A stretch of DNA of 64,000 nucleotides, taken from the sequence record PQ821640. One strand, written 5' to 3'. A program made the translations under genes and the position numbers. This DNA comes from Escherichia phage SD2. Each line of letters opens with the position of its first letter. Position 1 is the first letter of the stretch. Positions 1 to 17,531 of the stretch are shown in pieces. Under the pieces are notes generated by a model. It did not search any database. It had not been told where the DNA came from and saw only the letters and a program-made list of their open reading frames with translations.

Positions 1-212
1 TAAAAGTCATCTAAATCAACAATAATCTTAACACCTTGTGCCTTCAGGCGTTTAACTTCGTCTGATCCACGAGAATACACTCTATTAAAAACTAAAACGT
101 CTTTCTTAGGCTTAAACGTATTTCCCGCAAATGGCATTACAATACGATGGTAATCACAACCACTGCCTAACTTATTATCACACTTAAGTACAGGAGTATT
201 AGGATTTACCAT
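1..212 (-). CDS. hypothetical protein, N-terminal part only (gene runs off window start)
   Basis: Reverse-strand ATG near 210-212 preceded by GGAGG; frame open to position 1; absent from ORF track because there is no in-window stop. Confidence 0.4.
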   Translation of the reverse strand, partial: MVNPNTPVLKCDNKLGSGCDYHRIVMPFAGNTFKPKKDVLVFNRVYSRGSDEVKRLKAQGVKIIVDLDDF

Positions 213-885: not shown

Positions 886-894
886 AATAACTCC

Positions 895-1458: not shown

Positions 1459-1515
1459 ACTCCCTCCGTATTATTACTTTAGCATTTTTAGACTAAAAAG
1501 TCCAAATGGTTTTAC

Positions 1516-1710
1516 CTATTGATTACGTTTTGCGAGTTCCATCTGGATAGCTAAACTGTGATCTCGTGCTTCCATATACTCTTTATATGTTTCATTAAGA
1601 TGATCACGACAAACATCACGCAGTTTAATCAGTTTATCTGTAGGGATACCACTAAGATCATCCCAAGACTTTACAACTTCACCAGTATCATTGATCCCAA
1701 TGGTTTTCAT
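1516..1710 (-). CDS. hypothetical protein
   Basis: ORF track 64 aa. Confidence 0.4.
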   Translation of the reverse strand: MKTIGINDTGEVVKSWDDLSGIPTDKLIKLRDVCRDHLNETYKEYMEARDHSLAIQMELAKRNQ

Positions 1711-1918
1711 CTACAACCTCCTTAATTGCTACAGCACAGTTTTTGCAGATACACTGCCCTTTACCTTTAGAAATCTGGATGTAAGGTTCATTTTCATTTT
1801 CGCCCTTACGTGAGTCATATATTACAGAATTGAAGCACACAACGCAAATATTTTTTAAGATTGTATACTTATCAACTTTCTTTTTTGTTTTAAAGTTAAC
1901 TTCAATAACATCAGCCAT
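1688..1918 (-). CDS. hypothetical Cys-rich small protein (CxxC...CxxC)
   Basis: ORF track frame; start moved to internal Met that abuts the upstream stop; CVVCFN and CICKNC motifs. Confidence 0.4.
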   Translation of the reverse strand: MADVIEVNFKTKKKVDKYTILKNICVVCFNSVIYDSRKGENENEPYIQISKGKGQCICKNCAVAIKEVVDENHWDQ

Positions 1919-2196
1919 TAGTGTAACACTCCCAGTATGTTGTTTTGTGACATAACCATAGAACATTCAACATTATCGTGACTACGTGAAAAACGTTCCC
2001 AAACATCTTCATCGACTCGTAAAGCTATACAAGGATAGACGTTATCATTGATCATTTCAATTGAATAAACATCCACATTGTCTTCGTCTTCGATGAACAT
2101 CATTGCAAACTGTTCTAAATGTTTCCTAATGTAATGTACATCCTCTTCTGTAAGACCAATAACAAGATAACTTGCAACGATAACGCCATCTTTCAT
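1918..2196 (-). CDS. hypothetical protein
   Basis: ORF track 92 aa. Confidence 0.45.
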   Translation of the reverse strand: MKDGVIVASYLVIGLTEEDVHYIRKHLEQFAMMFIEDEDNVDVYSIEMINDNVYPCIALRVDEDVWERFSRSHDNVECSMVMSQNNILGVLH

Positions 2197-2206
2197 CTAT
2201 ATCTCC

Positions 2207-2716
2207 TTAGCGATAGAATTGATGTTCTTTGTAGCGGTACACTAGAACCATATCTTTTTCCCAGTGTGCTCTTATTGTAGATTTTTTAAAGTATAATGCT
2301 CCTTTTGTAATATCTAATGCAATTCGTAATTCTGGAAAATGGTTATCGAGATAAAGTAGACGTTCTGCTATAGCTTTAGCGTCTTTCCACTTATCGTGTT
2401 CCATAACGTTGAATGTCTTCGTGTAAGAGAATTGTCCTTTCTGAAACAAAACTTCTTTTATAGTATCAGGGAAATATGAATCTCTAGCCCTATTCAATAC
2501 TACATTACCAACAGCAGACATACCGCGCTTTCCTTGATTACGACTTTCTGCATAGATTGCACAAGCTAATAGATTTTCTTTACTATCACGCTTTGTACAC
2601 TTGTGAACTACTTTAGCAGTTTTTACGTTTGCAGCTTCGGCTTGCGCCACAACAGGTGTAAATGTAAAAGCAGTTAAGGATAGTAACGCAATTGCGACAA
2701 AGGTTTTTATTGACAA
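2207..2716 (-). CDS. secreted SleB/CwlJ-like cell wall hydrolase
   Basis: N-terminal signal peptide (AQAEAA cleavage region); motifs CAIYAESRNQG and VGNVVLNR typical of SleB/CwlJ family. Confidence 0.55.
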   Translation of the reverse strand: MSIKTFVAIALLSLTAFTFTPVVAQAEAANVKTAKVVHKCTKRDSKENLLACAIYAESRNQGKRGMSAVGNVVLNRARDSYFPDTIKEVLFQKGQFSYTKTFNVMEHDKWKDAKAIAERLLYLDNHFPELRIALDITKGALYFKKSTIRAHWEKDMVLVYRYKEHQFYR

Positions 2717-2768
2717 ACTTGCCTCCTATTTTGTTAAACGAACTTTTATTGTAACACAGAAGAGGCTA

Positions 2769-2790
2769 TTTTGCAAGTGGAGGGGGATTA
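2769..2790 (-). terminator. GC hairpin downstream of gene 2810-3412 (weak U-tract)
   Basis: GGAGGGGGATTATCCCCCCTC palindrome. Confidence 0.3.
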
Positions 2791-2809
2791 TCCCCCCTCT
2801 TACACTCTG

Positions 2810-3412
2810 TTAGATATTGTAAACCTTTGTATGAGTTACTACACCATCTTCTACAAAATCAATACGTTCTTGATCCGTGACTAGTGCAGACAACACTTTA
2901 AATTTAATTTTTACACGTTCAAAAGCTGGTTGACCATCTTTAAGATAATTATGTTCAGTTGTCACTGTCTTGTTTACAAAATCAACTTTTGCTTTACCGT
3001 TTTCGCGTAAGTGGAATGTTTTTCCTGCTTTATACACAATTTCAACATTACCTTCGAGAGTAATTCCTTCAAAAAGTTCACCATCTTCTTCATTTTCTTC
3101 ACTTTTGAACAGACGACGAAACTCTTCCATATCAAGATAAACAACATCTTCAGAATAACTATCAGTAAGATATGTCTTACCCTCCATTAACCCGAAATAT
3201 TGCCAGATTGCCGAATAAACATCACTAGATGATCCAAGGGTTTCTCTGAGTTTAGTTCCACGGATTACTTCATAAACTTCAAAATTGAAACCAGACTGCA
3301 AAGCATCAAACAGCACATCACTAACTTCTAAAGCATAATCTTCATTGTTGTCAATATCTACAAGAAAATTGCCGCTACGAATAAGTTTTTGACCTTCTAA
3401 AGTAATACCCAT
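2810..3412 (-). CDS. hypothetical protein
   Basis: ORF track 200 aa. Confidence 0.5.
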   Translation of the reverse strand: MGITLEGQKLIRSGNFLVDIDNNEDYALEVSDVLFDALQSGFNFEVYEVIRGTKLRETLGSSSDVYSAIWQYFGLMEGKTYLTDSYSEDVVYLDMEEFRRLFKSEENEEDGELFEGITLEGNVEIVYKAGKTFHLRENGKAKVDFVNKTVTTEHNYLKDGQPAFERVKIKFKVLSALVTDQERIDFVEDGVVTHTKVYNI

Positions 3413-3425
3413 TGTTTTCTCCTCT

Positions 3426-3455
3426 TTTATTTAAAATATGCGCCCCGAAGGGCGC
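3426..3455 (-). terminator. rho-independent terminator (bidirectional-looking)
   Basis: GCGCCCCGAAGGGCGC hairpin flanked by A/T runs. Confidence 0.6.
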
Positions 3456-3476
3456 TATGATTTATTACTTGACGTA

Positions 3477-4073
3477 TTACTCGAACCAATCGTCGCCAGC
3501 GCCAAACGCTTTAACTACATCGTAAATGTCAAGCCCAGCTTTACCGACACCATACGCTTTCAGTTTCCATTCGCTATCTTCTCGCACCAGGGAGGCAACG
3601 TGGCAAATGGTGTTACCTGCAAGTTCTGGAGCCAAGAAGTCAAAGTCCAGCAGTTCAACATTACGTTCATCATCGAAGATTTTAAGGAAACCTTCGGTAG
3701 CGTGACCAAGGCGTTTCTTACCCGTTTCGTCATCAATAGTAATTACGAATGCAATTTCTTGTGCTTCAGCAGAGATATTATCCAGAGTAACATCAATCTG
3801 CTCCATCTGTCCTACACCATCACGAACATCTTCACCTGCAAAAGTAGAACGTTCAGGATCAAATTTCTGCGCGTAGCACACCAGGTGACGAGGAGACAAC
3901 AGTTCCGGCAGACCAGATGCATTGTGTCGGCAAATCAGAGCACTAACATCCAGATCCAGTTTTTCGTTAGATTTCCAAGAGAATTCCAGACGAATGCGTT
4001 TCAGTGCTGGTGCGATCTTTTTCAGAGAAACTTTTTCGCTAGAACCTTTTTTCAGGGAAATTTTCTGAGTCAT
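3477..4073 (-). CDS. terD: TerD-family stress protein
   Basis: 198 aa; N-terminal ISLKKG..KVSLKK, LDLDVSAL, C-terminal EWKLKAYG typical of the TerD domain. Confidence 0.8.
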   Translation of the reverse strand: MTQKISLKKGSSEKVSLKKIAPALKRIRLEFSWKSNEKLDLDVSALICRHNASGLPELLSPRHLVCYAQKFDPERSTFAGEDVRDGVGQMEQIDVTLDNISAEAQEIAFVITIDDETGKKRLGHATEGFLKIFDDERNVELLDFDFLAPELAGNTICHVASLVREDSEWKLKAYGVGKAGLDIYDVVKAFGAGDDWFE

Positions 4074-4145
4074 AATTTATTATCTCCTTTGTTATTAATT
4101 TACGTTGTCTATTTTACTAATCTTTTCTACAAAGTCAAGCGTTTT

Positions 4146-4940
4146 TTACGCTTTTGCTCCGAATTTTTTAACCCACTCACCAAACTCTTCGGATAACAGT
4201 TTATCGTAAAGTTCTTCATCAGACAAGGACAAATCTGCAATACCGATAAAATCAACATTATCGTACTCTTTTGCCAAGTCTTTCAGGAATTTAAAGTTTG
4301 CATTACCTACACCAACCATAAACCAGTAAACAGGCGTATTGCGGTGTTTGTTCAGTAAGCTACGTACTGCTGAAGTATCCATGTTTTCCCCGTCAGTCTG
4401 GAAGAAAATCATTGCAGGAGTACGATCAACTTGTGCATTAGTATCTACAACCTGTTCTACAACAGTACGTGTTACTTCTACAAGTTCTTTTTTACCAGTT
4501 AGTTTAGCAAGGAAACCCTTAGCTGGGACTTCTTCATACTCAACGACTTCGCGTGTAATATTTTTCATAGGTACACTACCGAAGTATGTATCATAGATCT
4601 CCTGCATTACTGGAGCATAAGCAGTACCACCGTTGATGCAAACATTAGACATGCAAGAGCCGACATAATCATCATACACATCAGCCGTTGCAGGGGGCAG
4701 TTCAAAAGAAGAACTATTGAAAGCCCACATGTCAATCTGTGCATTGTCATCAAACTTCATACCAAACGGCAGCAGTTTACCTACAAAATCACTAACAGTG
4801 CCATCACGATACAGCTCACACATACTACCCGAAATATCTAAGGCGCTACCGACACGAAGAACAACATCGTTAATCTTTTTCTTACGCAGAGATACAGTAA
4901 GAGTTTCTTGACGTTTTTTAAGACTGATTTTATTGGACAT
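4146..4940 (-). CDS. vWA-domain protein (TerY/TerF-like, MIDAS motif)
   Basis: 264 aa; DISGSM MIDAS-like motif; N-terminal ISLKK repeat; sits between TerD and TelA-like genes. Confidence 0.6.
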   Translation of the reverse strand: MSNKISLKKRQETLTVSLRKKKINDVVLRVGSALDISGSMCELYRDGTVSDFVGKLLPFGMKFDDNAQIDMWAFNSSSFELPPATADVYDDYVGSCMSNVCINGGTAYAPVMQEIYDTYFGSVPMKNITREVVEYEEVPAKGFLAKLTGKKELVEVTRTVVEQVVDTNAQVDRTPAMIFFQTDGENMDTSAVRSLLNKHRNTPVYWFMVGVGNANFKFLKDLAKEYDNVDFIGIADLSLSDEELYDKLLSEEFGEWVKKFGAKA

Positions 4941-4941
4941 A

Positions 4942-5211
4942 TTATTTCTCCTTTCTGAGTGTAATGTTAGTAACTTCTAAATCCACTTCGACTACTTCTG
5001 TATCATATAAAATACAGTTAAGTTGACCTCTTTGTGAACCGTTCAGACACATTGCTTGGTTTGTATTAACCTTAATAAACACTAAGTTTCTGAACGTATC
5101 TAAACCAGAATCTTGATAGGCAACATAATATACGAATGTATCACCTGCGTCAAGTTCTCCAAAACATTTAGGTTCATCTGATTTGTCGTCTTTGATATTA
5201 AATTTAAGCAC
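4942..5211 (-). CDS. hypothetical protein
   Basis: ORF track 89 aa. Confidence 0.45.
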   Translation of the reverse strand: MLKFNIKDDKSDEPKCFGELDAGDTFVYYVAYQDSGLDTFRNLVFIKVNTNQAMCLNGSQRGQLNCILYDTEVVEVDLEVTNITLRKEK

Positions 5212-5767
5212 TGTCTTCTCCTTTACCTGCCCTCCAGCCTAAATAGAAAGCCTCTCTGGTGATCTTTTGCAACTCGTTTAAAGAGATAGTTACAACTAAA
5301 TCATCTTCAATCTCTAGCTTTGAGTCTTCTTCTGTCTCAATGCAAGTATTATGCACTTTGTGGTAAGGTTTGTCAACACGTTTAAATTTATTATTTTCAA
5401 TACTGAAGAAGCAATCTGGATCTTCTTCTCCATCACCCCAGCCCTGGTTAGGGTCTTCTTCAGATCTTTCTGTTGGGATCTCACCTGTAAAGTGCTCTTC
5501 TAATATCATAGCGATACCATCTCCAAGATCGGAAGAGAACATCAAGTTACAAACTTCTTCCCAAGGCATAGACCACTTAAATCTTTTACGATTGCCATGT
5601 TTATCTTCTTCGTTAGAGAAAACACTACCATAGCTATCATAATTGCCATACATCTCTTCAACAACTTTACCACCTTTCAAAAGAAATAGGTAGCAAGGAG
5701 AGCCATCGAAAGAGGTAGAAAGAGCAGCATTACCAGACTCTTTGCACAAGAAACTAAAACACCCCAT
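5204..5767 (-). CDS. hypothetical acidic protein
   Basis: ORF track 187 aa. Confidence 0.45.
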   Translation of the reverse strand: MGCFSFLCKESGNAALSTSFDGSPCYLFLLKGGKVVEEMYGNYDSYGSVFSNEEDKHGNRKRFKWSMPWEEVCNLMFSSDLGDGIAMILEEHFTGEIPTERSEEDPNQGWGDGEEDPDCFFSIENNKFKRVDKPYHKVHNTCIETEEDSKLEIEDDLVVTISLNELQKITREAFYLGWRAGKGEDSA

Positions 5768-5967
5768 TATACACCAGCCTTAAGATCAATTAAGGCCAAA
5801 GTTGTTTCAGAATGTGTTGGCTCGTCTACAGGTGCAGTCATATGATAATACAAAAAGTTTTCGGCATCATACCAATTTGACTCTTGACATTGTTTCCAAC
5901 CATCAATGAAAGCATCTTCCATAATGGTTTGTAATTCTTCACGAGTTAAGTGAATATCTTTATTCAT
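5767..5967 (-). CDS. hypothetical protein
   Basis: ORF track 66 aa; start/stop overlap with neighbours. Confidence 0.4.
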   Translation of the reverse strand: MNKDIHLTREELQTIMEDAFIDGWKQCQESNWYDAENFLYYHMTAPVDEPTHSETTLALIDLKAGV

Positions 5968-6200
5968 TACACATTCTCCTCTTTTACCAAATCCATCGTT
6001 GAACTATCAAAACCATCTTTAGAAGAATAGGTATAGACAGAACGTAGTTCTCGCAGGACAGTAAATACATTAGGATCATCTAACCAAGCATCCTGGAGGA
6101 GAACATAACGATCTTCATTGTCGTACTGGACAGCGATCATAGAACCAGACAGTTTGTAAATTTTAATATTCATAATATATTTCTCCTTAAAGTAGACCAC
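5967..6200 (-). CDS. hypothetical protein
   Basis: ORF track 77 aa. Confidence 0.4.
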   Translation of the reverse strand: MVYFKEKYIMNIKIYKLSGSMIAVQYDNEDRYVLLQDAWLDDPNVFTVLRELRSVYTYSSKDGFDSSTMDLVKEENV

Positions 6201-7290
6201 GTTTAACAGTTTGAATCATACCATCTTCAAGAGATTGTACTTCTTGAATGTAATCAATACGAGCAGCACGGGCTTCAGTGTTGATCCGATTAGTTTCTTC
6301 CAACATTTTAACTAAGTTTTCTTGATCGCGACGTAATGTCTCAATATCCAATACTTGACGATTAGCAAGTTGTGTAGCTTCAATTTGGTTTTGTGCAGCC
6401 AGATCACTACCCATTGCAATAGCAGCATTAAATTCATTCAGTACATTGTTCTGTGTATCGGCTGCTTTCTTCTGGCGTAGACTTTCAATATACATAGAAA
6501 AGTTTGCAGAGTAAGCAGGAATAACATTATTCACAATATTACGGGCTGATCGCATCAAACTTGCAGATACTTTCTGCATACTTTGTACACGTGGCCCCAT
6601 CTGAACACACAGTAAACGCAAGGCTTTCAGGTCTGCAATACGAATTTCAAGCAGATCCATAGTATCACGAGTACGTTGACGCTCTTCTACTTCATTTTCA
6701 GGTAGTGTATTAAGGCGAACTTCTTCTTTTTCATAAGTAGCTGTTAGAAGCTCTATATCCCTGTTTAAGCTAAGAGCATATTTTGCAATAGCCTCTTCTA
6801 AACGTTGCAGATATCGTAAAGAATCTTCTTCTTTTTTCAAGTCTGTTTGGAGTGTCTTTACCAAACCTTCAATACGATTATTGATGGTGTCAAATTCACC
6901 AAACAAATCTTCTTTCATACCTAATACTTTCTTAACTAGTTTACCTAAGCCTTTAGATTGTTTAATAGAATTAGGATCAAGTTGCTTTGCTTGCTTAATA
7001 AGTGCAGTTAAACGCTCACTCATTTCATCTCCCTGAGATGAACGCTGGTGTTTAAGCACTTCCGCATTAAGGTTACGAAGAGTAAGTCCTGCATCAGCAC
7101 CAACCTGTTCAATCTCTTCACGAGACATTGGAGGCAGCATTTGTACAGGTCGTGCAACAGCAGGGGCATATACAGGGCTTGCATCCATAGCAGTTGGAGC
7201 AAACAAAGACTTACTTTTTTCTGTTGTTGCCGTGAATACACTCATTTCAGACGGTTTGCTTTTTACGGCACTGATAAAAGGACTGGACAT
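6187..7290 (-). CDS. TelA-like (toxic anion resistance) coiled-coil protein
   Basis: 367 aa, long helical/coiled-coil region, size and composition like TelA/KlaA; Ter-gene context. Confidence 0.5.
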   Translation of the reverse strand: MSSPFISAVKSKPSEMSVFTATTEKSKSLFAPTAMDASPVYAPAVARPVQMLPPMSREEIEQVGADAGLTLRNLNAEVLKHQRSSQGDEMSERLTALIKQAKQLDPNSIKQSKGLGKLVKKVLGMKEDLFGEFDTINNRIEGLVKTLQTDLKKEEDSLRYLQRLEEAIAKYALSLNRDIELLTATYEKEEVRLNTLPENEVEERQRTRDTMDLLEIRIADLKALRLLCVQMGPRVQSMQKVSASLMRSARNIVNNVIPAYSANFSMYIESLRQKKAADTQNNVLNEFNAAIAMGSDLAAQNQIEATQLANRQVLDIETLRRDQENLVKMLEETNRINTEARAARIDYIQEVQSLEDGMIQTVKRGLL

Positions 7291-7358
7291 TCAATTTCCT
7301 CCATATTCTTTAGTAGATGGTGATACCTCTGTACCACCATCATAACACAAATTAAGTA

Positions 7359-8210
7359 TTAAACAAACATATCTAAATAATTTGTAGTAATAAATGCTCC
7401 ATCTGCTTCCAGATTAACATAACCAGTAGCATTAGTGGTTAAGAAATCCAGATCGAAGGACTCTTTAACACCCCGTACCTCAACACGAGAGATATCGAAT
7501 ACAGGTAGTGTAACAGCCTCTTCGTGCAATACCGTACCTTTGTAGGTTGCCTTAATGATAAACTTGATATTACCCGTTCCCGCATCATACAAAACACTTT
7601 CAAACCCTTTGAGAGTATATTTATCACCAGAAGTGAAGTGCAAAGTTGCTTTGTTTACAGTACGTTTTTTACGAGGAGTTCCTTTCACACGTTTATGATC
7701 ACTACGTTTTTTGCATTTAGGAATGAATACAAACGATACACTCTCAAGAAAGGTATCAACATCAAGGATTTTAATATCCTCTGTTGCAGCAAATTTTGAA
7801 GTCGTTGCATCAAAATGCTTTCCCCTGCGATCATACATAAAGATATCAAACCGATCTTCTAAATCAAACAAATTGTGTATCTTAATTTCAGAATGCTTGC
7901 ACATTGCAGCAACCTTAAACTCTTCAAAACGTGGGTGTTCTACAAGCTCTTCAAGTTTTACACCAAAGACAGTATATTGTTTCGAAGTTTTTTCTGGCGT
8001 TGGCATTACAGAAGCATAATCACCGATTGCGCTTTTAAAGCAAAATTGTTCTTGACCTGTATTTTTACCAACGAATTTACAGTATTCATCATCGTGCATA
8101 CTTTCCTGGGTAGTACCAACAAACTCAAAACCATCCTTATTCTTCTCAAGAATTTCTTGATTAAAGATCCAACCTTCCAGGCGATACACTTTACCAACTT
8201 CTAGTTTCAT
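7359..8210 (-). CDS. hypothetical protein
   Basis: ORF track 283 aa; N-terminal GKVYR motif also seen in product of 45116-45568. Confidence 0.5.
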   Translation of the reverse strand: MKLEVGKVYRLEGWIFNQEILEKNKDGFEFVGTTQESMHDDEYCKFVGKNTGQEQFCFKSAIGDYASVMPTPEKTSKQYTVFGVKLEELVEHPRFEEFKVAAMCKHSEIKIHNLFDLEDRFDIFMYDRRGKHFDATTSKFAATEDIKILDVDTFLESVSFVFIPKCKKRSDHKRVKGTPRKKRTVNKATLHFTSGDKYTLKGFESVLYDAGTGNIKFIIKATYKGTVLHEEAVTLPVFDISRVEVRGVKESFDLDFLTTNATGYVNLEADGAFITTNYLDMFV

Positions 8211-8245
8211 CTGTTTCTCCTTCTTATTTAATCTGTATTAAATTA

Positions 8246-8836
8246 TTAACGACGACGTGAGCTACTAAAACTACGTTTCGATGAAGAATAACTTTTCGAA
8301 GACTTACTATAAGAGCTAATAGGGCTTGAGTAAGACTTACGAGCAGAGTAATTACTATTCACTTTTGTTGTTGATGGGCGTGAATACGTTTGTACACTTT
8401 GCTGCTTAATTGTGTTTTGTTTAGTGGTTGTATATGTATTCCCTTGTTTATCATAAAAACTATGCTTTTGTGTTGTATATGCTTTACTATTAGTTGTAGG
8501 AGCAGCGTTGTTATTAATAATTGTTGTATTGCTACCGCCATCTCTATAACCACCACCGCCACTATTACCACTCAACATATGACCAAGAAGCATACCTGTA
8601 GCAAATTCACCTACACCAGAAGAACCACTGCCGCCTCCTTGCACAACAACTGTTGAAGGTTGTGCAGGTGCTGCTTGAACAACTTGAGGCGCAGGTTGAT
8701 TTACATATTGTTCATCTACCATCTGATTTGGTGTTTGTTGGTAACGTTGGTTTTGTACACTTTCAGAATCATCACAACCTACCAGCAATGCACTGCCTAA
8801 AACAACTGCAACAATAAAAGATTTAATGTTTTTCAT
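8246..8836 (-). CDS. lipoprotein with Gly-rich and Ser/Tyr/Lys-rich low-complexity tail
   Basis: Start moved to second Met (RBS GAGAGGG); signal peptide with lipobox LLVGC. Confidence 0.55.
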   Translation of the reverse strand: MKNIKSFIVAVVLGSALLVGCDDSESVQNQRYQQTPNQMVDEQYVNQPAPQVVQAAPAQPSTVVVQGGGSGSSGVGEFATGMLLGHMLSGNSGGGGYRDGGSNTTIINNNAAPTTNSKAYTTQKHSFYDKQGNTYTTTKQNTIKQQSVQTYSRPSTTKVNSNYSARKSYSSPISSYSKSSKSYSSSKRSFSSSRRR

Positions 8837-9029
8837 CTGTAACCCTCTCATTTAAAGTCTCGACACAATTTTTAAAATCTCTAGAGAAACAATACATCTG
8901 TTCTCCGTTCCTGTTGATAGTAATTGTATGGTTATCAACATATGTTGTCAAGATAAAAATCAAACAAAATAACCCTAAAGCAAAACAAATATTTTCAAAC
9001 AGAATCCAAAGAACACGTAAAACCACCAT
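8823..9029 (-). CDS. small hydrophobic protein
   Basis: ORF track 68 aa; predicted TM segment; RBS-like GAGGTGA. Confidence 0.35.
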   Translation of the reverse strand: MVVLRVLWILFENICFALGLFCLIFILTTYVDNHTITINRNGEQMYCFSRDFKNCVETLNERVTDEKH

Positions 9030-9040
9030 CAGATCACCTC

Positions 9041-9061
9041 AATAAAGCCCCCGAAGGGGCT
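9041..9061 (-). terminator. rho-independent terminator after TerC gene
   Basis: GCCCCCGAAGGGGC hairpin followed on minus strand by TTTATT. Confidence 0.6.
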
Positions 9062-9068
9062 TAATGAA

Positions 9069-10046
9069 TTAAGCAACAGCCTGGTCTTCTTTTTCAGGGA
9101 AGATTAAACTTGCAATAACACCCAGTCCCAGAGTACCTAACACAATATACATACTGATCGTCGGATCAATGTGTGCTGGCAGGAAACTCACTTTTGCGTG
9201 CAGAGTTTCTGCAAACGGGTGATACATCAGTTTTACACCCACAAATACCAGGACTACGATAACTGCTTTCTCCAGATGAACCAAATATTTCAGTGCAACA
9301 CTAAGGACAAAGAACAGAGCACGTAGACCTAAAATTGCACACAGCATTGAAGAAAATACAAGCAGAGGTTCTTGTGTCACTGCAATTACTGCTGGAACAG
9401 AGTCTACTGCAAAGATTACGTCAACCATTTCCATTACAAACACACAAACCAATGCAGGAGTTGCTACACGAACACCATTTTTGATTGTGAAGAACTTCTC
9501 ACCATCCATCTGATCAGATACAGGGAACAGCTTACGAACAATGCGAGTAGCCCAGTGTTTAGAGTAATCAACTTCTGCGTCATTATCTCCAGCGAATACC
9601 ATTTTAGCGGCGCAGAAAAGGATGACCGCACCGAAGAAGATATTAACATACCAGCCCAAACTCAACAAGTAAGTACCTACTGCTACAAACACACCTCGGA
9701 AGACAATCGCACCTGCAATACCCCAAAGTAGAATCTTGTGCTGCAAGTGTGTGCTTTTAATACCAAAACTTGCGAATACTGCCACAAATACTACTAAGTT
9801 ATCTACAGAAAGAGATTTCTCCAACACATACCCACTCAAGAACAAGCTCGCAAAATCAGCACCGTGTTGGAAGTATACAAAACCATAGTAGGCTAACGAT
9901 ACCCCAATCCAGAAAATTGACCAGCCAATTGCAGATTTAAATGAAATTTCTTTGTTTTCTCTGTGTCCAAAGAAATCAATACAAATCGACAAGACTAAAA
10001 TACCCACTAAAACAACCACATCAATAATTGGGAAACCCAGTTGCAT
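9069..10046 (-). CDS. terC: TerC-family integral membrane protein
   Basis: 325 aa polytopic membrane protein with EKSLSVDN motif characteristic of TerC family. Confidence 0.75.
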   Translation of the reverse strand: MQLGFPIIDVVVLVGILVLSICIDFFGHRENKEISFKSAIGWSIFWIGVSLAYYGFVYFQHGADFASLFLSGYVLEKSLSVDNLVVFVAVFASFGIKSTHLQHKILLWGIAGAIVFRGVFVAVGTYLLSLGWYVNIFFGAVILFCAAKMVFAGDNDAEVDYSKHWATRIVRKLFPVSDQMDGEKFFTIKNGVRVATPALVCVFVMEMVDVIFAVDSVPAVIAVTQEPLLVFSSMLCAILGLRALFFVLSVALKYLVHLEKAVIVVLVFVGVKLMYHPFAETLHAKVSFLPAHIDPTISMYIVLGTLGLGVIASLIFPEKEDQAVA

Positions 10047-10123
10047 TCTTTTCTCCTCTTTAATGCGGAGGACAATCCTCCGCTCTATGTCGTATACTAT
10101 AAACTGTTTTTAAAGAAAGTCAA

Positions 10124-10372
10124 CTAGTTCAGTTCTGTAATTTTAAGTTTATCTTCTTTGTTAATGATAGGGAAAGCTACAGCATCACCTACATCATCAA
10201 TAAAGCAAACAGCAAGACCACCTTCCACTTTGCTAACCTGACCATTAAAGGCGTGATACGGGGCAGGAACAATATCTCCATCTTCAAGGAGAATAGCCTC
10301 ATAAACCTTACCAACAGTACAATCACGAGTGTTTATAAATTTTTCAAGCACTTCAACATTTACTTTACGCAT
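10124..10372 (-). CDS. hypothetical protein
   Basis: ORF track 82 aa. Confidence 0.45.
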   Translation of the reverse strand: MRKVNVEVLEKFINTRDCTVGKVYEAILLEDGDIVPAPYHAFNGQVSKVEGGLAVCFIDDVGDAVAFPIINKEDKLKITELN

Positions 10373-10386
10373 ATAAAAATCCTCTC

Positions 10387-10593
10387 TTATTTGTTAGATT
10401 GAAAGATACCACGAAGTACCGCAAGAATGAACGTCACACAGACTACACTCCAAAACGTTACAGGAACATGATGCCAGTCTAAACCGATAATGTCAATCAT
10501 ATAGTTGTATGCTAAAAGCAGTAGCCAACTAGGGATTAACACAATCAAGAACACAACAATAAAACAACCTAATACTGCTAAAACACCTGCCAT
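10387..10593 (-). CDS. small membrane protein
   Basis: ORF track 68 aa, two hydrophobic segments. Confidence 0.45.
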   Translation of the reverse strand: MAGVLAVLGCFIVVFLIVLIPSWLLLLAYNYMIDIIGLDWHHVPVTFWSVVCVTFILAVLRGIFQSNK

Positions 10594-10602
10594 ACTTTCT
10601 CC

Positions 10603-11319
10603 TTATTTCAGTTTGTAAACAATTACATTTAAACCTTTGTTTACTAGAGTTTCTTCGATCATAAGTTTTACAATATTCCAAGAACCTCCAGCCAAACCAC
10701 AACCAAGCATTGGTAAACCTACAATTTTACCGCCTGAAGATACAACATCGTCTCCCATACTATCTAACGCATTGTAGATAGCTTCATAATTCAGGTCACG
10801 CTTACCTTCCTCACGACGACTATAACCATATTGTCCATATAAATTATAAATTGTCAAATTGTTTTCTGTATACTTAGTAAACGTACCTAATTTTTTATAA
10901 TCACCACGCTTAGTGGCACAGTCTGCTTTAAACGCACCAGGCCACTTGCTTTTAATTTTTGGTGCAATACCACTACCCATAGTGCAAAAACAGTTACAGC
11001 AGTGTGCTATAGCGTCTATATCGCCTCTCTCTGCTGCTGCTAAAAGATCACCGTATACCTCAATGATACCTGCTGGATAACTTGTTACAATTTCATCTTC
11101 CCAGTACATTTTCTCTACACCACCGATCAGTGCAAAGTTTTGTGTGATGCGATCATCAATATAATTAAGACCTGAAACATACACAGCATATTCATCCTGT
11201 GCTGTAATGCCTTGTACACGAATTCTTAAGACACCATCTTTATCTGTTGCTACACGCCCAAAATCTTTTTCTGTAATATTGGTGATAGGATCTCCGAAAG
11301 TCGTCACTTTATTAGACAT
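10603..11319 (-). CDS. Macro-domain-like protein (putative ADP-ribose binding/processing)
   Basis: Start at internal Met with RBS AAAGGGG; DAIAHCCN...MGSGIA resembles macro-domain DAIVNAAN...GGGVA signature. Confidence 0.45.
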   Translation of the reverse strand: MSNKVTTFGDPITNITEKDFGRVATDKDGVLRIRVQGITAQDEYAVYVSGLNYIDDRITQNFALIGGVEKMYWEDEIVTSYPAGIIEVYGDLLAAAERGDIDAIAHCCNCFCTMGSGIAPKIKSKWPGAFKADCATKRGDYKKLGTFTKYTENNLTIYNLYGQYGYSRREEGKRDLNYEAIYNALDSMGDDVVSSGGKIVGLPMLGCGLAGGSWNIVKLMIEETLVNKGLNVIVYKLK

Positions 11320-12169
11320 AATAATCCCCTTTAACATTAGATTTGTTGATAATGTTGCTTTCAAAAAATTGATGCAGGAAATCAAAGTTCTTTTTGTATT
11401 TTTCAATATTATTGTAACCTTCTGCAAGGCAACCAAAGAACAGTTGTTCTACATAATACAAAGGAAGTTGTGAAAGTGCAATTTTAAAATCAACTTCGCT
11501 TTGACTCATTAGATACTTAATAGGACGAACCAAACATTTAGCATCAGTTTCTTGCTTAATCATTTTAATAAAAGCTGCCAGGTTATTGATATAGTTGAAG
11601 TTAAGTGCAGCTTCGGTGTTGGCTTCTGTACCTTCATACTTTGCAAAGTACAGGAAAAACGTATCGTTTTCAACACCTTCTTTGTCTAAAATTTCAATAA
11701 GTTTTTCTTCGTGTGTTCCTGTAATATTAACATCATCAATGAAAATCAGAGTTTTATTACCCCAGAAATCACGATTGATAGAGAAAGTGTCACCATCGAT
11801 CAAAGCCTTACGATCTTCTTTGCTAAGAAATCCATAATCATTGATATAACTCACTTTACGATGAACGATATCCCACTCTACTGCTTTACCTCCTTTGATA
11901 GAGATTAGGTAGTTGAGGTGATCTACAAAATGTTCAGATAACACTGTAGCTGCATTTTTCACATAGTTATATGGAGATGGAATAACAACAAAACTTTCAT
12001 TTACTAGTCGTTCTTCATATTTAGAAAAGAAACTTTCAGCCAGAATGCGTCCCATTCTTTTTGCTGCCTGGTTACTACCAAACTTTAGTTTGGAATAATC
12101 TGCAATGTTAAATTTTGCTTCCTTCAGGTTAGTAAAAGTATTAGCAAAATGTTGAATTTGATTACGCAT
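11312..12169 (-). CDS. phosphoribosyltransferase-like protein
   Basis: 285 aa; PRPP-binding-like motif LIFIDDVNITGTH. Confidence 0.5.
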   Translation of the reverse strand: MRNQIQHFANTFTNLKEAKFNIADYSKLKFGSNQAAKRMGRILAESFFSKYEERLVNESFVVIPSPYNYVKNAATVLSEHFVDHLNYLISIKGGKAVEWDIVHRKVSYINDYGFLSKEDRKALIDGDTFSINRDFWGNKTLIFIDDVNITGTHEEKLIEILDKEGVENDTFFLYFAKYEGTEANTEAALNFNYINNLAAFIKMIKQETDAKCLVRPIKYLMSQSEVDFKIALSQLPLYYVEQLFFGCLAEGYNNIEKYKKNFDFLHQFFESNIINKSNVKGDYYV

Positions 12170-12818
12170 TAATAAGTTCCTCTTTTTTAAGTTTAGCCAA
12201 CAAGTCTTCTGGATTAATAATATGACAGAACTTCATCCCTATGTCAACAGCTTTTCCATCATAAATCAAACTATCTCCAACGTGTAAAATCTCCTCTGGT
12301 GCGAGATCAAACGTTACCATTTCATCAAAAGAGAGTTTAAAAAACCTAGGATCTGGTTTACACAAGCAAAACTCATCAGAAAAATGCATAAAGTCAAATG
12401 GTAATTTTGTTAAGCCAGAATATACAGCTAAGAAACTACCTGGTACAAAATTAGTATTGCTCTTAATACTCAAAGAATAGATTGAACTTAGCTCTTCCAA
12501 CTTCTTGCAAAGCTCAGGGTTCAATATTGGAGGATGTTTTATAAACATTGCTAAACAGTCTCTTTTTAACCCATCTACTTTATCAAGATCAATGTTCAAA
12601 CGAGTAGAAAGTGTTTCCCAAGCATTCCTAGACGTTCCACAAATGCCTTTTTCTGCTTTTAAATCCAGGAGAGTTTTTACCTCTTTATATACAGTAGCTG
12701 CTTCTGCCTCAGAACAAGAGGCATACTCGGCAATAACCTTGTTGCGTTCTTCTGCATACAAAGGATTAGCAGTAATAAGAGTATTCCATACATCAAAAGA
12801 AATATGCTTAACAGTCAT
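12162..12818 (-). CDS. HAD-superfamily hydrolase
   Basis: Start moved to Met with GGAGG RBS; motif I FDVWNTL (DxD-type), C-terminal GDS..D. Confidence 0.55.
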   Translation of the reverse strand: MTVKHISFDVWNTLITANPLYAEERNKVIAEYASCSEAEAATVYKEVKTLLDLKAEKGICGTSRNAWETLSTRLNIDLDKVDGLKRDCLAMFIKHPPILNPELCKKLEELSSIYSLSIKSNTNFVPGSFLAVYSGLTKLPFDFMHFSDEFCLCKPDPRFFKLSFDEMVTFDLAPEEILHVGDSLIYDGKAVDIGMKFCHIINPEDLLAKLKKEELINA

Positions 12819-12821
12819 TTT

Positions 12822-12976
12822 TAATCCTCCGTCCAAAAGAATATCATCTGCTTAATTTTATTGATCTCTTGATGTAGTAACTTTCCAGCATGTGATTGAT
12901 CTTTAATATTGACAGCAAGAATTTCAAGCTCCGTTAGTTTTTCTTGGATAGCTTTATATTCATCATCTGTAAGCAT
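12822..12976 (-). CDS. small hypothetical protein
   Basis: Manually found ~51 aa ORF with RBS AAAGGGGAAG; coordinates approximate. Confidence 0.3.
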
Positions 12977-12987
12977 TTTCTTCCCCT

Positions 12988-13179
12988 TTAGAATGGTAAT
13001 CTTTGTATGTCACTTATCCCCACACCCAGAAGTCTAGCAATATCCTTATCTAAAAGCAACTCTTTTTGTTCTAAAATGTTAATCAAATCTCCTAATACTT
13101 CTTTAATGTCACGATCATTTTTAGCAACGTGACCACCTGCGGTATCAACTTTATCTTTAAAAACAAAATAATGATCCAT
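12988..13179 (-). CDS. hypothetical protein
   Basis: ORF track frame; second Met preferred (GAGGG RBS). Confidence 0.4.
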   Translation of the reverse strand: MDHYFVFKDKVDTAGGHVAKNDRDIKEVLGDLINILEQKELLLDKDIARLLGVGISDIQRLPF

Positions 13180-13189
13180 AATACCCTCC

Positions 13190-13222
13190 ATATAAATAAA
13201 GGAGGCTTTCGCCTCCTTTTAT
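13190..13222 (-). terminator. rho-independent terminator after AAA ATPase gene
   Basis: GGAGGCTTTCGCCTCC hairpin with flanking T/A runs. Confidence 0.6.
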
Positions 13223-13225
13223 CAC

Positions 13226-14386
13226 TTAGTAAGAACGACCACCAAACACATACTCTGTGTAGTTTTTACGTTCTTTGTTTTTAATAACAACTTCAATGTT
13301 GTTACCTTTATCATCGGTGAACATAAAGTGATAGCCGTCACCACCCATTGTACGAATGTGTTTTTCATCATACGTTAGCAAGATACGGTCTACACCCCAG
13401 TAGTAGTCACCTTCTTCATCTTTATCTTCTACGGTAACAATCCCTTCCATTTCAGGAAGATGCTCTTCACCTAGTTTATGGTCTACAGCTACAACATAAC
13501 GATTACCGCTAAACAAACCTTGTGCTGTCATACCGTCAATATCGGTATCTGACGAAACATCTCCTGTACGATCTACACCGTTAACTTTCAGAAGTTTAAC
13601 CTCTTTTGCAGCATAGCTGTGTTCAGTAATACTGATACCCATCAATGCAAGTGCATCAGAGAATTTGTCATTAGGGTAACGGTTAAGTTCTTCTACTAAT
13701 GACTGAACAATATCAAAGTTCAAATCCACGGAGAGATTGTAAAGCGTTTCAAAATCTGGTAAGAAGGCTTTGTTCTCCAGATTTTTAGCCAGATAATCAT
13801 CCATAGTAGCTTTAGGTAGTTTCTTATAGCTAAAACTGTAGAAAATACGGCTAGGACGATTACGCAAAAATTCTGATACATAACCATCATTTTTAGTCAA
13901 TACAAACAGTTTGTCGTAGCCACCAACACCATCCAGCAGGGTAAGCAAACCATCTTGTGCATCTTTTTCAGCATACAATTTATCAAATTCATCGATCATA
14001 ATCATCACAGGTTGTGTGATTTTAGACATAAAATTGATAAAGCCTTCACCATTAAAAGCACTACCGATAGAAATAGTAGGAATACCCATTTCACGAAGAG
14101 CAGAAGACAGCATTTTAGCTTGCAAAGTTTTACCGCTACCTTTCGTACCCTCAAGGAGAACACCTGTGTTTTTACCTTTACGGCTAAGGAACGTCTTGAT
14201 AATACGTTCTGATTTATCATCAGTATCACCGTATGTTACTGAAGGGACTTCCATATCGTTTTTAGGATACAAGAAGAACTCGCCACTTTGAGTAACACCT
14301 ACACCAAAAGTTCCTGCTGGAATTTCTTCAATATCTGTACCAGATTTCTGACGCAGGAAGATTTGATTGCCGAATACTGTAAACAT
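13226..14386 (-). CDS. AAA-type ATPase (paralog A)
   Basis: 386 aa; Walker A GTKGSGKT, Walker B IMIDEFDK; paralog of 30172-31299 product. Confidence 0.7.
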   Translation of the reverse strand: MFTVFGNQIFLRQKSGTDIEEIPAGTFGVGVTQSGEFFLYPKNDMEVPSVTYGDTDDKSERIIKTFLSRKGKNTGVLLEGTKGSGKTLQAKMLSSALREMGIPTISIGSAFNGEGFINFMSKITQPVMIMIDEFDKLYAEKDAQDGLLTLLDGVGGYDKLFVLTKNDGYVSEFLRNRPSRIFYSFSYKKLPKATMDDYLAKNLENKAFLPDFETLYNLSVDLNFDIVQSLVEELNRYPNDKFSDALALMGISITEHSYAAKEVKLLKVNGVDRTGDVSSDTDIDGMTAQGLFSGNRYVVAVDHKLGEEHLPEMEGIVTVEDKDEEGDYYWGVDRILLTYDEKHIRTMGGDGYHFMFTDDKGNNIEVVIKNKERKNYTEYVFGGRSY

Positions 14387-14406
14387 AGTTTTCTCCTCTA
14401 TTTAAT

Positions 14407-14877
14407 TTAGTCAGATTCCCAAATGTTGTCTTTCTTAACCCACATTCGTTGATTATCTGAACCTCTATAACGTTTCGTTGTTGGTTGATTCATATCATAC
14501 TTACCATCTATCACTATGTCAACCAGTTTTTTAATTTTCTCTGGAATTTCTTCAAAAAGATATCCTGTATATAAGACAATATCTTTTTTGTTTCCAAAAC
14601 AATCTCTTACCTTCTCAAGAACATACTCTACAGTGTCAATGTTCTCTTTGTCAAGAGGTTCACCACCTAAAACTGTTAATCCTTTAATGAAAGGTCGAGA
14701 TAAATCTTCCAAGATAAGATCTAATGTTTCAGTAGTGAACTCTTGTCCGTAGTTATACGACCAGGCTTTCTGGTTAAAGCAGCCACGGCAACCGTGGCTA
14801 CAACCGCTCACCCACAAAGAGCATCTTACACCGTCACCGTTGAGCATGTCAACAGGTTCATATCCGGCGTAATTCAA
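14407..14877 (-). CDS. nrdG: anaerobic ribonucleotide reductase activating protein (radical SAM)
   Basis: 156 aa; CSHGCRGC radical-SAM cluster motif; 4-nt overlap with nrdD. Confidence 0.85.
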   Translation of the reverse strand: MNYAGYEPVDMLNGDGVRCSLWVSGCSHGCRGCFNQKAWSYNYGQEFTTETLDLILEDLSRPFIKGLTVLGGEPLDKENIDTVEYVLEKVRDCFGNKKDIVLYTGYLFEEIPEKIKKLVDIVIDGKYDMNQPTTKRYRGSDNQRMWVKKDNIWESD

Positions 14878-15845
14878 AAATGTTTCTCCCTTTCTAGTAC
14901 CTCTTGCATTTTACCTTTATTATAAGGGCGAGAGTTAGGGGCAGAAAGGTATCCTGACACTCTTCTGATCACAGATATGGATTCTTCTTCATGATTACCG
15001 CAACTTGGACACTCGAAGCCTTTAGCCGTTGCTTTAAATTCACCATGAAAACCACATTTGAAACACTGATCTACAGGTTGGTTCACGCCAAAATAAGGAA
15101 TTTTATTGTAGGCATAATCTACAAGAGTTTCCAGTGCTTGCAAGTTATTTTTAAGGTTTGGTGTTTCTACATAACCTATGTTCCCACCATTACTAATTTG
15201 TGCAAAACCTTCCTCATAATCCCACTTTTGGAACGGGGTAGTGTGCATCCATACAGGTTGATGGAAAGAGTTTGTCAAGTAGTCACGATCAATAGAGCCA
15301 GGATAGCGATCATTTAACGCTTTGGCAAATTTATAGCACAAGGATTCTGCTGGTGTTCCATACAAACTAAAAGCTAAACCAGAACGTTCTTTAAATGTGC
15401 AACAGATATCCTTCATATATTGAAGGATGTTTTTACCCATTGCTTTTGGATTGGTGTTGTTTGGGTATAAAATCTCCATAGCTTCTGCTAAACCTACATA
15501 ACCGATACTAATAGAGGCATAACCACCTTCAAATAGTTTACCAATCTCTTCATTAGCTTCTAGTCGAGCTAAAGCCCCTTCCATAAACAATGTAGGGTTT
15601 TGAGATGCTTTGGTATGTCTAATACGGTTAACACGTAGCATATGTGCCTTATACGCCATCTCCATATGTTGTTCCAACAGTTCAGTAAATAAGATGCCCT
15701 TTTCACGGGACTCTGCTGCAATGATAGGTAAGTTTAAAGAAACTACGCCTAAGTTGAAACGACCATCATATTTTTCACCTTGCTCTGTTGCATAGTATGA
15801 CAAGAAACTTCTACACATTATGTTCAAAGTGGCTCGCAAGGCCAC
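14874..15845 (-). CDS. nrdD: anaerobic ribonucleoside-triphosphate reductase, 3' exon (C-terminal half)
   Basis: C-terminal glycyl-radical-like IRRVSGYL, zinc ribbon CFKCGF...CPSCGN; 5' limit is a splice junction not resolved here (track start is GTG). Confidence 0.8.
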   Translation of the reverse strand: MALRATLNIMCRSFLSYYATEQGEKYDGRFNLGVVSLNLPIIAAESREKGILFTELLEQHMEMAYKAHMLRVNRIRHTKASQNPTLFMEGALARLEANEEIGKLFEGGYASISIGYVGLAEAMEILYPNNTNPKAMGKNILQYMKDICCTFKERSGLAFSLYGTPAESLCYKFAKALNDRYPGSIDRDYLTNSFHQPVWMHTTPFQKWDYEEGFAQISNGGNIGYVETPNLKNNLQALETLVDYAYNKIPYFGVNQPVDQCFKCGFHGEFKATAKGFECPSCGNHEEESISVIRRVSGYLSAPNSRPYNKGKMQEVLEREKHF

Positions 15846-16575
15846 TCCCGCACCATTACGTGCTGCTGCATGTCACCATGCAGATCAGACTATATCTTCA
15901 TGCTTAAAGCATGTCTACCATTTGGGGTGTCATAGGCTTACACCCTACGCTGCTACATTCATCACAGCTAGTCGTTAGGCATTTCGTAACAGAACTCATA
16001 ATCATAATTATTTGGTGCTCCGCGCTTTAAGATTGCAGATATTCTTTTTCTGTCCAACCCTAAAGCGTCAGCACAACATCTCAGACTTTTAAAGTAAAAA
16101 ACTTCACCAGTAGCCTTATGAGTAGCTTTTACACTGTGACACCTTGTGTAGAAAGCATAACAGTTATTATCGTAACCCTCTTGCGTGTTGTCTGGACAAG
16201 ATCCCCACTCAAGATTGTATACACTGTTGTCTTTCCTATTGTCACCTTTATGCTTCACATAAGATAAATTGTCTGGATTGGGTAAAAACGCTTCAGCTAC
16301 AAGTCTGTGCACCCGAAAGCAAACAGTTTTCTTGTTTTTACGTATTCTGACAAGTTGGTATCCTGTGTTTATTTCTTCCCACAAGCGAAGGATTCTTTCA
16401 TCCTTATACCTAGTACAATAAACATTTCCAAGCTCGTCAATTTCATACCCTTCAAAATCACGAATTTGTTTTCTCATATCAGTACCCCCTTCTTCTGTGT
16501 TGGGAGTTCTGTTACGTTTAGCACGGGATTGTCTCGTTGAGAGTTCCCCCGTTTAGGCAGATTTTACATGAGCAG
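15846..16575 (-). mobile_element. putative group I intron interrupting nrdD, carrying HNH homing endonuclease ORF
   Basis: nrdD reading frame broken between 16576 and 15845; intervening ~730 nt contains a free-standing HNH ORF and GC-rich structured flanks; boundaries approximate. Confidence 0.6.
15968..16477 (-). CDS. HNH-family homing endonuclease (intron-encoded)
   Basis: 169 aa; YEIDELGNVY, VHRLVAEAF, DNSVYNLEW motifs; RBS AAGGGGG. Confidence 0.75.
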   Translation of the reverse strand: MRKQIRDFEGYEIDELGNVYCTRYKDERILRLWEEINTGYQLVRIRKNKKTVCFRVHRLVAEAFLPNPDNLSYVKHKGDNRKDNSVYNLEWGSCPDNTQEGYDNNCYAFYTRCHSVKATHKATGEVFYFKSLRCCADALGLDRKRISAILKRGAPNNYDYEFCYEMPND

Positions 16576-17442: not shown

Positions 17443-17460
17443 TAATCCTCCGTGGAAAAT

Positions 17461-17487
17461 AAAAGCCAGCATTAAGCTGGCTTTAGG
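17461..17487 (-). terminator. rho-independent terminator upstream of nrdD
   Basis: AGCCAGCATTAAGCTGGCT hairpin followed on minus strand by TTTTATTTT. Confidence 0.55.
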
Positions 17488-17531
17488 GTGGATCTTTATT
17501 TTAAATCTTTTTCGTAAGATTATCCTTGATC

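Follow-up and report, generated by a model that had tools for sequence, protein, structure and literature searches.

The sequence analysed here is a 64,000 nt stretch (the window) of Escherichia phage SD2 (PQ821640), identified by megablast as a Justusliebigvirus (phi92-like, Stephanstirmvirinae), a virulent myovirus. Every gene from about position 200 to 27,000 of the window is carried on the minus strand, and an 11-kb block within this region encodes a cluster of Ter-type proteins together with a phosphoribosyltransferase (PRTase) and a HAD hydrolase. The question of what Ter systems do biochemically dates from the 1970s–90s; such systems are widespread in pathogens and have been tied to virulence as well as to phage inhibition and colicin resistance. 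A preliminary description of the window had named eight open reading frames (ORFs) in the block as TerD, von Willebrand factor A (vWA), TelA, TerC, Macro, PRTase, HAD and AAA proteins. All eight were found at the positions given, each scored above the Pfam curated cut-off and the family assignments proved correct (Table 1). Pfam scans took in 39 ORFs across positions 199–18482, including every ORF of the block.

Table 1. Genes and candidate transcription signals of the Ter block and its boundaries in the phage SD2 window (aa, amino acids; TM, transmembrane)
Feature	Coordinates	Strand	Evidence or description
Terminator-like hairpin after TerD, downstream boundary	3440..3455	-	GCGCCC-TTCG-GGGCGC, then ATATTTT
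TerD-domain protein, 198 aa, core	3477..4073	-	Pfam TerD PF02342 E 5e-28, 98 bits (cut-off 25)
Sigma-70-like promoter upstream of TerD	4111..4138	-	TTGACT-16-TAAAAT, in 72-nt intergenic spacer
vWA-TerF-like protein, 264 aa, core	4146..4940	-	Pfam PF10138 E 7.5e-39, 134 bits
Four ORFs between vWA and TelA, 89, 187, 66 and 77 aa	4942..6200	-	PHROGs without function; no Pfam match
TelA-family protein, all-helical, 367 aa, core	6187..7290	-	Pfam TelA PF05816 E 5e-34, 118 bits
Three ORFs between TelA and TerC: 283-aa ORFan, 201-aa predicted lipoprotein, 68-aa single-TM protein	7359..9029	-	Lineage-specific
Hairpin with T-rich tail after TerC	9047..9060	-	GCCCC-TTCG-GGGGC, then TTTATT
TerC-family integral membrane protein, 325 aa, core	9069..10046	-	Pfam TerC PF03741 E 1e-38, 133 bits
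Sigma-70-like promoter upstream of TerC	10096..10123	-	TTGACT-16-TATAGT, in 77-nt intergenic spacer
Two small ORFs between Macro and TerC, 82 aa and 68 aa (two TM segments)	10124..10593	-	Sequence
Macro-domain protein, 238 aa from ATG at 11319, domain about 85–237, accessory	10603..11319	-	Pfam Macro E 3e-7
PRTase_3, ComF-like type I PRTase, 285 aa, core	11312..12169	-	Pfam PF15610 E 9e-42, 144 bits, full length
HAD-superfamily hydrolase, 218 aa, core	12162..12818	-	Pfam HAD 26.6 bits (cut-off 26.4)
Two small ORFs, 51 and 67 aa, head of HAD-PRTase-Macro unit	12821..13191	-	Annotated in BME3 and JohannJBalmer
Terminator-like hairpin, AAA/block (upstream) boundary	13198..13219	-	9-bp stem AAAGGAGGC/GCCTCCTTT, then ATTTAT
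AAA+ ATPase, 386 aa, outside conserved set	13226..14386	-	Pfam AAA 29.5 bits (cut-off 21.2); phrog_2376

The PRTase was traced through phage records by tblastn (156 records), through proteins (306 homologues, all matching PF15610) and through a scan of IMG/VR (16 loci). Neighbourhoods of 10 kb around the HAD–PRTase pair were then compared across 18 non-redundant lineages obtained by jackhmmer and blastp clustering. In all 18 lineages the HAD gene immediately preceded PRTase, mostly with the two genes overlapping. All four Ter genes (TerD, vWA, TelA and TerC) were located within 10 kb of the pair in the window, in Phapecoctavirus (L003 and L014), in relatives at about 80 % (L011 and L012) and in four distant viral contigs (L013, L017, L019 and L021), with the set complete except for TelA in L022. 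Gene order was shuffled among the 8–9 lineages with co-located Ter families: TelA-vWA-...-TerC-HAD-PRT-TerD in L013 and L019, TelA-x-HAD-PRT-vWA-TerC-TerD in L021, and TerC-x-vWA-TerD-TerD-TelA-HAD-PRT in L017. The vWA gene adjoined Ter genes in eight lineages. This recurrence of six families together, in divergent phage lineages and in different orders, indicates that the clustering is not due to chance. The conserved core consists of six genes (TerD, vWA, TelA, TerC, HAD and PRTase), and no further family co-occurred with them across the loci compared.

As a conserved set, the eight-gene cluster described earlier was therefore reduced to these six. The AAA ATPase is not a member of the Ter set, being lineage-specific and separated from it by a terminator-like hairpin: the gene is limited to Justusliebigvirus and the relatives at about 80 % (L011 and L012), and is missing from Phapecoctavirus, where the order is nrdG, small ORFs and then HAD, and from all divergent Ter loci examined. 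The Macro gene adjoins PRTase only in Stephanstirmvirinae-type phages (the window, L003, L011/L012 and L014). The location of the cluster beside nrdDG was as described, with nrdG (14407–14877) and a split nrdD directly upstream of the AAA gene.

The 11-kb region was 98–99 % identical to that of phages W22, PHB05, ECGD1, muut and JohannJBalmer (BASEL collection), and 53 phage records contained 80 % or more of it (megablast). Between Justusliebigvirus and Phapecoctavirus, the ratio of nonsynonymous to synonymous substitution rates (dN/dS) was 0.08–0.16 for the four Ter genes (0.08 for TelA; 0.15 for TerD, with 81 % aa identity), 0.09 for NrdG and 0.41 for HAD, these values being approximate because dS is near saturation throughout. 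For PRTase the ratio was not estimable because synonymous sites were saturated (proportions of nonsynonymous and synonymous differences 0.24 and 0.75, respectively). Purifying selection acts on the four Ter genes between the two genera, to a degree comparable with NrdG, and many isolates share a 100 % identical TerD.

TerD aligned end to end with Klebsiella TerD (PDB 2kxt, E 8.6e-15), also matched 3ibz and retains the DLDxSA motif. An ORF at 2810–3412 was ruled out as a second TerD (BLASTP against TerD E 0.64, no Pfam match). RAST flagged gp172, gp173 and gp178 of phi92, and its 'two TerD' proteins (gp172/173) are TerD and the vWA-TerF protein. In the vWA protein the metal-ion-dependent adhesion site (MIDAS) motif is intact (DISGS 35–39; GGT 104–106, with T106; TDGE 182–185, with D183), and there was no match to the PADLOC TerY-P model. 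The N terminus of this protein (KISLKK...VSLRK) resembles the N-terminal strand of TerD (KISLKKGSSEKVSLKK) and may be a remnant of a TerD–vWA fusion as in TerF. The TelA match spans positions 13–330 of the 332-position PF05816 model, and the protein was assigned to phrog_5890, 'tellurite resistance'. An AlphaFold2 model of TelA was all-alpha, with long helical hairpins (helices of 74–96 residues), at low confidence (mean predicted local distance difference test, pLDDT, 59), and returned only non-significant generic helical bundles in Foldseek (BAR domains, AhlC/ClyA). TerC has nine hydrophobic segments, and both of its paired acidic intramembrane signature motifs are intact (EKSLSVDN 76–83 and EMVDVIFAVDSVPA 206–219).

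The phosphoribosyl pyrophosphate (PRPP) loop of the PRTase (DDVNITGT, residues 145–152) was invariant among 25 homologues and was the sole match in a profile search against the PDB. The AlphaFold2 model (pLDDT 90.9) consists of a type I PRTase fold and a family-specific helical C-terminal domain. The best Foldseek matches were 6-oxopurine PRTases (HGXPRT), H. pylori ComF, PyrR and PurF, with TM-scores of 0.3–0.45, and these structures do not single out a substrate as the acceptor. The HAD gene overlaps the PRTase gene by 8 nt, and the family call is backed by NCBIfam HAD-IA models and by PDB 2om6 (E 1.3e-8). HAD motifs I–IV are present, motif I reading D9-V-W11-N-T13. The Asp+2 position is W in 19 of 20 homologues, including those from bacteria, and Y in one; the FDVWNTL motif is also found in the nearest solved structure (2om6, from P. 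horikoshii). Canonical HAD phosphatases require Asp+2 as a general acid/base. With a DxWxT motif I lacking this residue, the label of nucleotide phosphatase is an assumption. Fuller versions of the Ter-associated metabolite module include ATP-grasp amidoligases and a TIM-barrel C-C lyase, but neither was detected by Pfam among the block ORFs.

The cluster has the defining features of the Ter gene network, with TerD, TerC, TelA and a TerF-type vWA in conserved linkage, and includes a Ter-associated PRTase with an intact PRPP loop, the activity of the HAD protein being uncertain. The Pfam scans detected no TerB and only one TerD-domain protein among the 39 ORFs, and no PP2C or kinase among the block ORFs. 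Lacking TerB, ATP-grasp, PP2C and kinase, the cluster corresponds to neither the terZABCDEF operon nor the TerY-P system. The ORFs of the block without an assigned function were ruled out as the missing TerB, ATP-grasp or lyase, since Pfam, NCBIfam, PHROGs and PADLOC were all empty for these. TerC and TerD-domain proteins are shared with the classical terZABCDEF loci of IncHI2 plasmids and E. coli O157:H7, from which the phage set differs in lacking TerB and in having a single TerD-domain protein that is distant from Klebsiella TerD. The phage PRTase had no tblastn match on enterobacterial plasmids, including IncHI2. Given this absence and the distance of TerD, recent gain from host ter operons or IncHI2 plasmids was rejected.

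In a comparison with bacterial ter loci, as had been suggested, the enzyme pair was found next to Ter genes on a plasmid of Hymenobacter monticola. Here HAD-PRTase_3 is divergent from three TerD paralogues, two TerY-type vWA, PP2C and kinase genes (the TerY-P triad) and a TerC-like DUF475 gene. The Pfam families are the same as in the phage, whereas the phage has one TerD, one vWA, a TelA and no phosphorylation module. An ATP-grasp or TIM-barrel lyase was found in neither locus. In bacteria, a link between Ter genes and a PRTase/HAD module making a nucleoside-like metabolite has been proposed (Anantharaman 2012, as presented in PMC7824862 and PMC12054061). The link drawn in the preliminary description between the phage Ter genes and the PRTase/HAD module was upheld by the comparative analysis and by this published reasoning, as far as those two sources convey it.

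Phage Ter clusters and their link with PRTase and HAD are already known, and neither the cluster nor the hypothesis is new; the novelty implied earlier was too high. Phage systems with Ter, PRTase and HAD genes have been published, with inter-phage competition and superinfection exclusion as proposed roles, and smaller tailed phages were also reported to carry Ter clusters (Iyer et al. 2021, Viruses 13:63, PMC7824862). The component list of the SD2 cluster, including PRTase and HAD as a 'signal biosynthesis' pair, matches the published description of the systems of Acinetobacter phage vB_AbaM_ME3 (PRTase and HAD) and of Caulobacter jumbo phages, which likewise occur in large virulent phages. 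Unlike those jumbo phages, SD2 is a non-jumbo phage of about 148 kb. GenBank records of phi92-like phages already label the genes as tellurite resistance, TerC, phosphoribosyltransferase, HAD, macrodomain protein and ATPase. Phages ZCKP1 (Phapecoctavirus), PhiPsa374-like Otagovirus and phiKp34 are virulent and carry a terC/terD/terF-vWA/telA subset; ZCKP1 is of the same subfamily and shares synteny with SD2. Superinfection exclusion was suggested for the four tellurite-resistance genes of ZCKP1 (PMC6141743). The papers on these three phages describe the four Ter genes only and make no tie to the adjacent PRTase and HAD genes.

The present comparison adds the six-gene core, with AAA excluded and Macro as a lineage add-on, the strict pairing of HAD and PRTase with its unusual HAD motif, and the presence of the enzyme pair elsewhere in the genomes of Caulobacter phages listed as having 'abbreviated' Ter systems (TerD/TerC/TerF/TelA; Iyer et al. 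2021, PMC7824862). In these Caulobacter jumbo phages (CcrColossus, L006, gp268/gp269; CcrPW), HAD-PRTase_3 is encoded about 27 kb from TerD. The value of the SD2 cluster lies not in discovery but in its being a tractable minimal system for an old question: the set is compact, has no TerB and occurs in virulent phages of K-12 such as JohannJBalmer of the BASEL collection, which makes it a convenient reduced system for working out the roles of the Ter proteins and of the PRTase-HAD product. We know of no ter operon in E. coli K-12 itself.

The reading tentatively preferred is that the cluster is a reduced phage Ter system for membrane stress or 'phage inhibition', which would protect the envelope of the infected cell and exclude other phages. 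In bacteria, terC, terD and terZ are required for phage inhibition and colicin resistance, and TerC–TerD is the minimal functional unit (PMC12054061). We infer each functional step, including complex formation, timing of expression, the exclusion or protection phenotype and the metabolite chemistry, from conserved linkage, bacterial ter genetics and earlier proposals for phage Ter genes. The genes would be transcribed early, probably by host RNA polymerase at the sigma-70-like promoters. TerC, as an inner-membrane cation-handling protein, would assemble with TerD, the vWA/MIDAS protein and TelA on the cytoplasmic side of the inner membrane, changing its cation and envelope state. The infected cell might thereby become refractory to depolarising insults such as DNA injection by superinfecting phages, pore-forming colicins and metal stress, and infection and the timing of lysis would be protected. 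The PRTase would join PRPP to a base-like acceptor, and HAD would process the product to a nucleoside- or nucleotide-like small molecule serving as a ligand or signal for the Ter proteins.

Several points weigh against this proposal. The Ter phenotype is carried over from ter operons of plasmids and chromosomes, which also encode TerB and several TerD paralogues, both lacking in the phage cluster. Literature searches turned up no experiments on phage Ter clusters, and no Ter protein of the cluster matched a PADLOC defence model. Coupling of Ter and PRTase genes is not obligate, as TelA occurs in 245 phage records and PRTase in 156; many jumbo phages and Otagovirus lack PRTase_3, so that Ter genes are commoner in phages than the enzyme pair. 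In nine of the 18 lineages (XaC1, Rhizobium phages, CcrColossus, the rhizobial plasmid pRL10 and five metagenomic contigs) the pair had no Ter gene within 10 kb. The acidic Ca-binding loop of TerD is partly degenerate (GEDVRDGVGQME), with GVGQME in place of GDGDDE, and Ca binding may consequently be reduced. In a HAD protein that lacks the Asp+2 general acid, a simple nucleotide-phosphatase step is not assured. Lastly, the promoters and terminators of Table 1 were called as pattern or consensus matches, and their regional counts were not above shuffle expectation.

A rather unlikely alternative is that the cluster serves metal handling, with TerC as an Mn/Zn/Ca exporter or metalation factor and TerD and vWA as metal-binding partners, either adjusting host metal pools or supplying metal to exported phage or host enzymes, and with phage exclusion as an incidental effect. 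The TerC-family proteins MeeF/MeeY and Alx act in Mn2+ export and exoenzyme metalation. The intact acidic intramembrane motifs of TerC and the intact MIDAS are consistent with such a role, as are the Ca-binding fold of TerD and the envelope-directed neighbours (a cell-wall hydrolase, a lipoprotein and small TM proteins). The phage TerD, however, lacks several acidic Ca ligands, and the recurrent linkage with PRTase-HAD and TelA is left unexplained. The Klebsiella evidence points both ways: TerC contributes to resistance to phage, Zn and Mn, but was itself judged to be probably no Zn/Mn efflux pump (PMC12054061).

It is also unlikely that HAD and PRTase, possibly with Macro, form an independent nucleotide or ADP-ribose module that merely sits together with the Ter genes in one early accessory region and might act in counter-defence, salvage or the reversal of ADP-ribosylation. 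The nine lineages without a nearby Ter gene, which include Rhizobium phages and rhizobial plasmids, argue for such a module, but some of these 'solo'-pair genomes encode TerD or TelA elsewhere, as seen in XaC1 (TerD-like gene at 293 kb, PRTase at 127 kb) and in Caulobacter and Brevundimonas phages (in CcrPW, TerD at 179 kb and PRTase at 207 kb). HAD, PRTase and Macro are an overlapping trio, and TerC has promoter- and terminator-like signals of its own. Nevertheless, no fewer than five independent gene orders place the pair inside a Ter set, in a bacterium it adjoins TerD and vWA, and PF15610 was itself defined from Ter-associated loci. The Macro protein is of the de-ADP-ribosylating SCO6735/TARG1/DarG-like type, but is not conserved with the pair and lacks equivalents of Lys84/Asp125, which we take to be the catalytic pair of TARG1, having GQYG and GCGLAGG instead, like SCO6735. 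No pyrophosphokinase or NAMPT-type enzyme for rebuilding NAD+ accompanies the pair. As such an enzyme is missing and Macro is not conserved with the pair, a NARP-like NAD+-reconstitution system of PRTase and Macro was rejected as unsupported.

Genes for nucleotide and RNA metabolism recur near the pair in other phages, which also favours an independent module. RNA-ligase-like genes were noted 1–9 kb upstream of HAD-PRT in five unrelated phage lineages (L004, L015, L018, L019 and L021), CCA-adding enzyme genes in L020 and L006, and nicotinamide mononucleotide (NMN) adenylyltransferase/Nudix genes in L005 and L023, several of these being identified by motif reading and not by searches; in Rhizobium phages the pair adjoins the NMN adenylyltransferase/Nudix gene. 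These neighbours may merely reflect a shared accessory region.

A further and equally doubtful possibility is that PRTase_3 and HAD are an obligate two-enzyme cassette, in which HAD, with its DxWxT motif I across the family, is no ordinary phosphatase, making a non-canonical ribosylated small molecule as the long-sought ligand that controls a membrane complex of TerD, vWA, TelA and TerC. If true, the cluster would be a minimal host-independent Ter system for this chemistry and for the 40-year-old 'phage inhibition/colicin resistance' phenotype. That the genes are passive 'morons' giving the host tellurite or xenobiotic resistance, or decaying remnants without a lytic role, is very improbable despite labels such as 'tellurite resistance' and a set that is incomplete next to terZABCDEF, since a virulent phage leaves no lysogen to benefit, the core genes are all intact with the four Ter genes selected like NrdG and TerD identical in many isolates, and the six-gene set recurs among unrelated large phages.

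The candidate transcription signals suggest that the block comprises several early transcription units. Hairpins after AAA and after TerD bracket it, and the internal promoter-like and terminator-like signals led to rejection of a single operon. TerC is apparently a transcription unit of its own, and the annotation of phage Schickermooser has a terminator at the same place after TerC. In the 5' leader of TerC (10047–10095), a strong hairpin (GCGGAGGA-TTG-TCCTCCGC) follows the promoter-like site and precedes the ribosome-binding site. Riboswitch control is common among bacterial TerC-family genes; the SD2 leader had no Rfam match and is too short for a yybP-ykoY element.

The Macro gene overlaps the PRTase gene by 8 nt. 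Its nearest PDB relatives are SCO6735 (5e3b), BT1257 and TARG1/OARD1, and partial matches to the DarG macrodomain were found in NCBIfam and PADLOC. The phage Macro domain aligns over its whole length and shares the HxCN, GQxG and GCGLAGGxW motifs with SCO6735 and BT1257; the protein differs from these, TARG1 and DarG in an extra N-terminal region of about 85 residues and in having no DarT partner. The NCBIfam DarG score was 48.9 bits against a cut-off of 250 and covered the macro domain only, and Pfam scans of the block ORFs detected no DarT-like ORF nearby. The locus is not a DarTG system, and Macro is a lineage-specific add-on of SCO6735/TARG1-like type. The AAA protein has a Walker A motif at G80–T87 and a Walker B motif at 128–133.

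The four ORFs between vWA and TelA are kept in Justusliebigvirus and Phapecoctavirus and are missing from divergent Ter loci. The first 115 or so residues of the 187-aa protein (5204–5767) are a widespread domain without a Pfam family, always starting from residue 1, with the signature MGCFSxxCxxCG...YDSYGRVF...DPNQGWG and 226 cluster representatives. In the window copy the second Cys of CxxC is missing, and the domain had no Ter-gene linkage in other lineages. Between TelA and TerC, homologues of the 283-aa protein are confined to its own phage group. The 201-aa predicted lipoprotein has an LVGC lipobox at 23–26 and a low-complexity body that is first Q/P-rich and then S/T/K-rich. Its gene overlaps the end of the gene for the 68-aa protein, which has an N-terminal TM segment, by 29 nt (8246–9029), a layout that recalls overlapped spanin pairs or exclusion lipoproteins. 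The 68-aa protein with two TM segments (10387–10593) is labelled 'holin' in BME3, a label with no support behind it. Of the two small ORFs that head the HAD-PRTase-Macro unit, the one of 67 aa has a conserved counterpart in Phapecoctavirus.

Outside the block, a secreted cell-wall hydrolase of SleB/CwlJ type is encoded nearby at 2207–2716, and two glycosyltransferase-like genes lie downstream at 199–1458. One of these matched the TET-associated glycosyltransferase model at 23.3 bits, below the cut-off of 27.5; such genes have been read by others as modifiers of surface polysaccharide. Four records under the name 'Campylobacter phage' (host C. jejuni; MG065639 and others) were 98 % identical to the 11-kb region and are probably mislabelled or contaminant genomes. 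The split in nrdD is due to a 769-nt insertion (window positions 15816–16584, minus strand) that is not present in JohannJBalmer or BME3. An HNH/NUMOD endonuclease ORF (15968–16477) sits within the insertion, and the 3' part scored 39.3 bits (E 2.5e-8) against Rfam Intron_gpI, short of the gathering score of 50. The insertion resembles a mobile group I intron that encodes a homing endonuclease, comparable to that of T4 nrdD.

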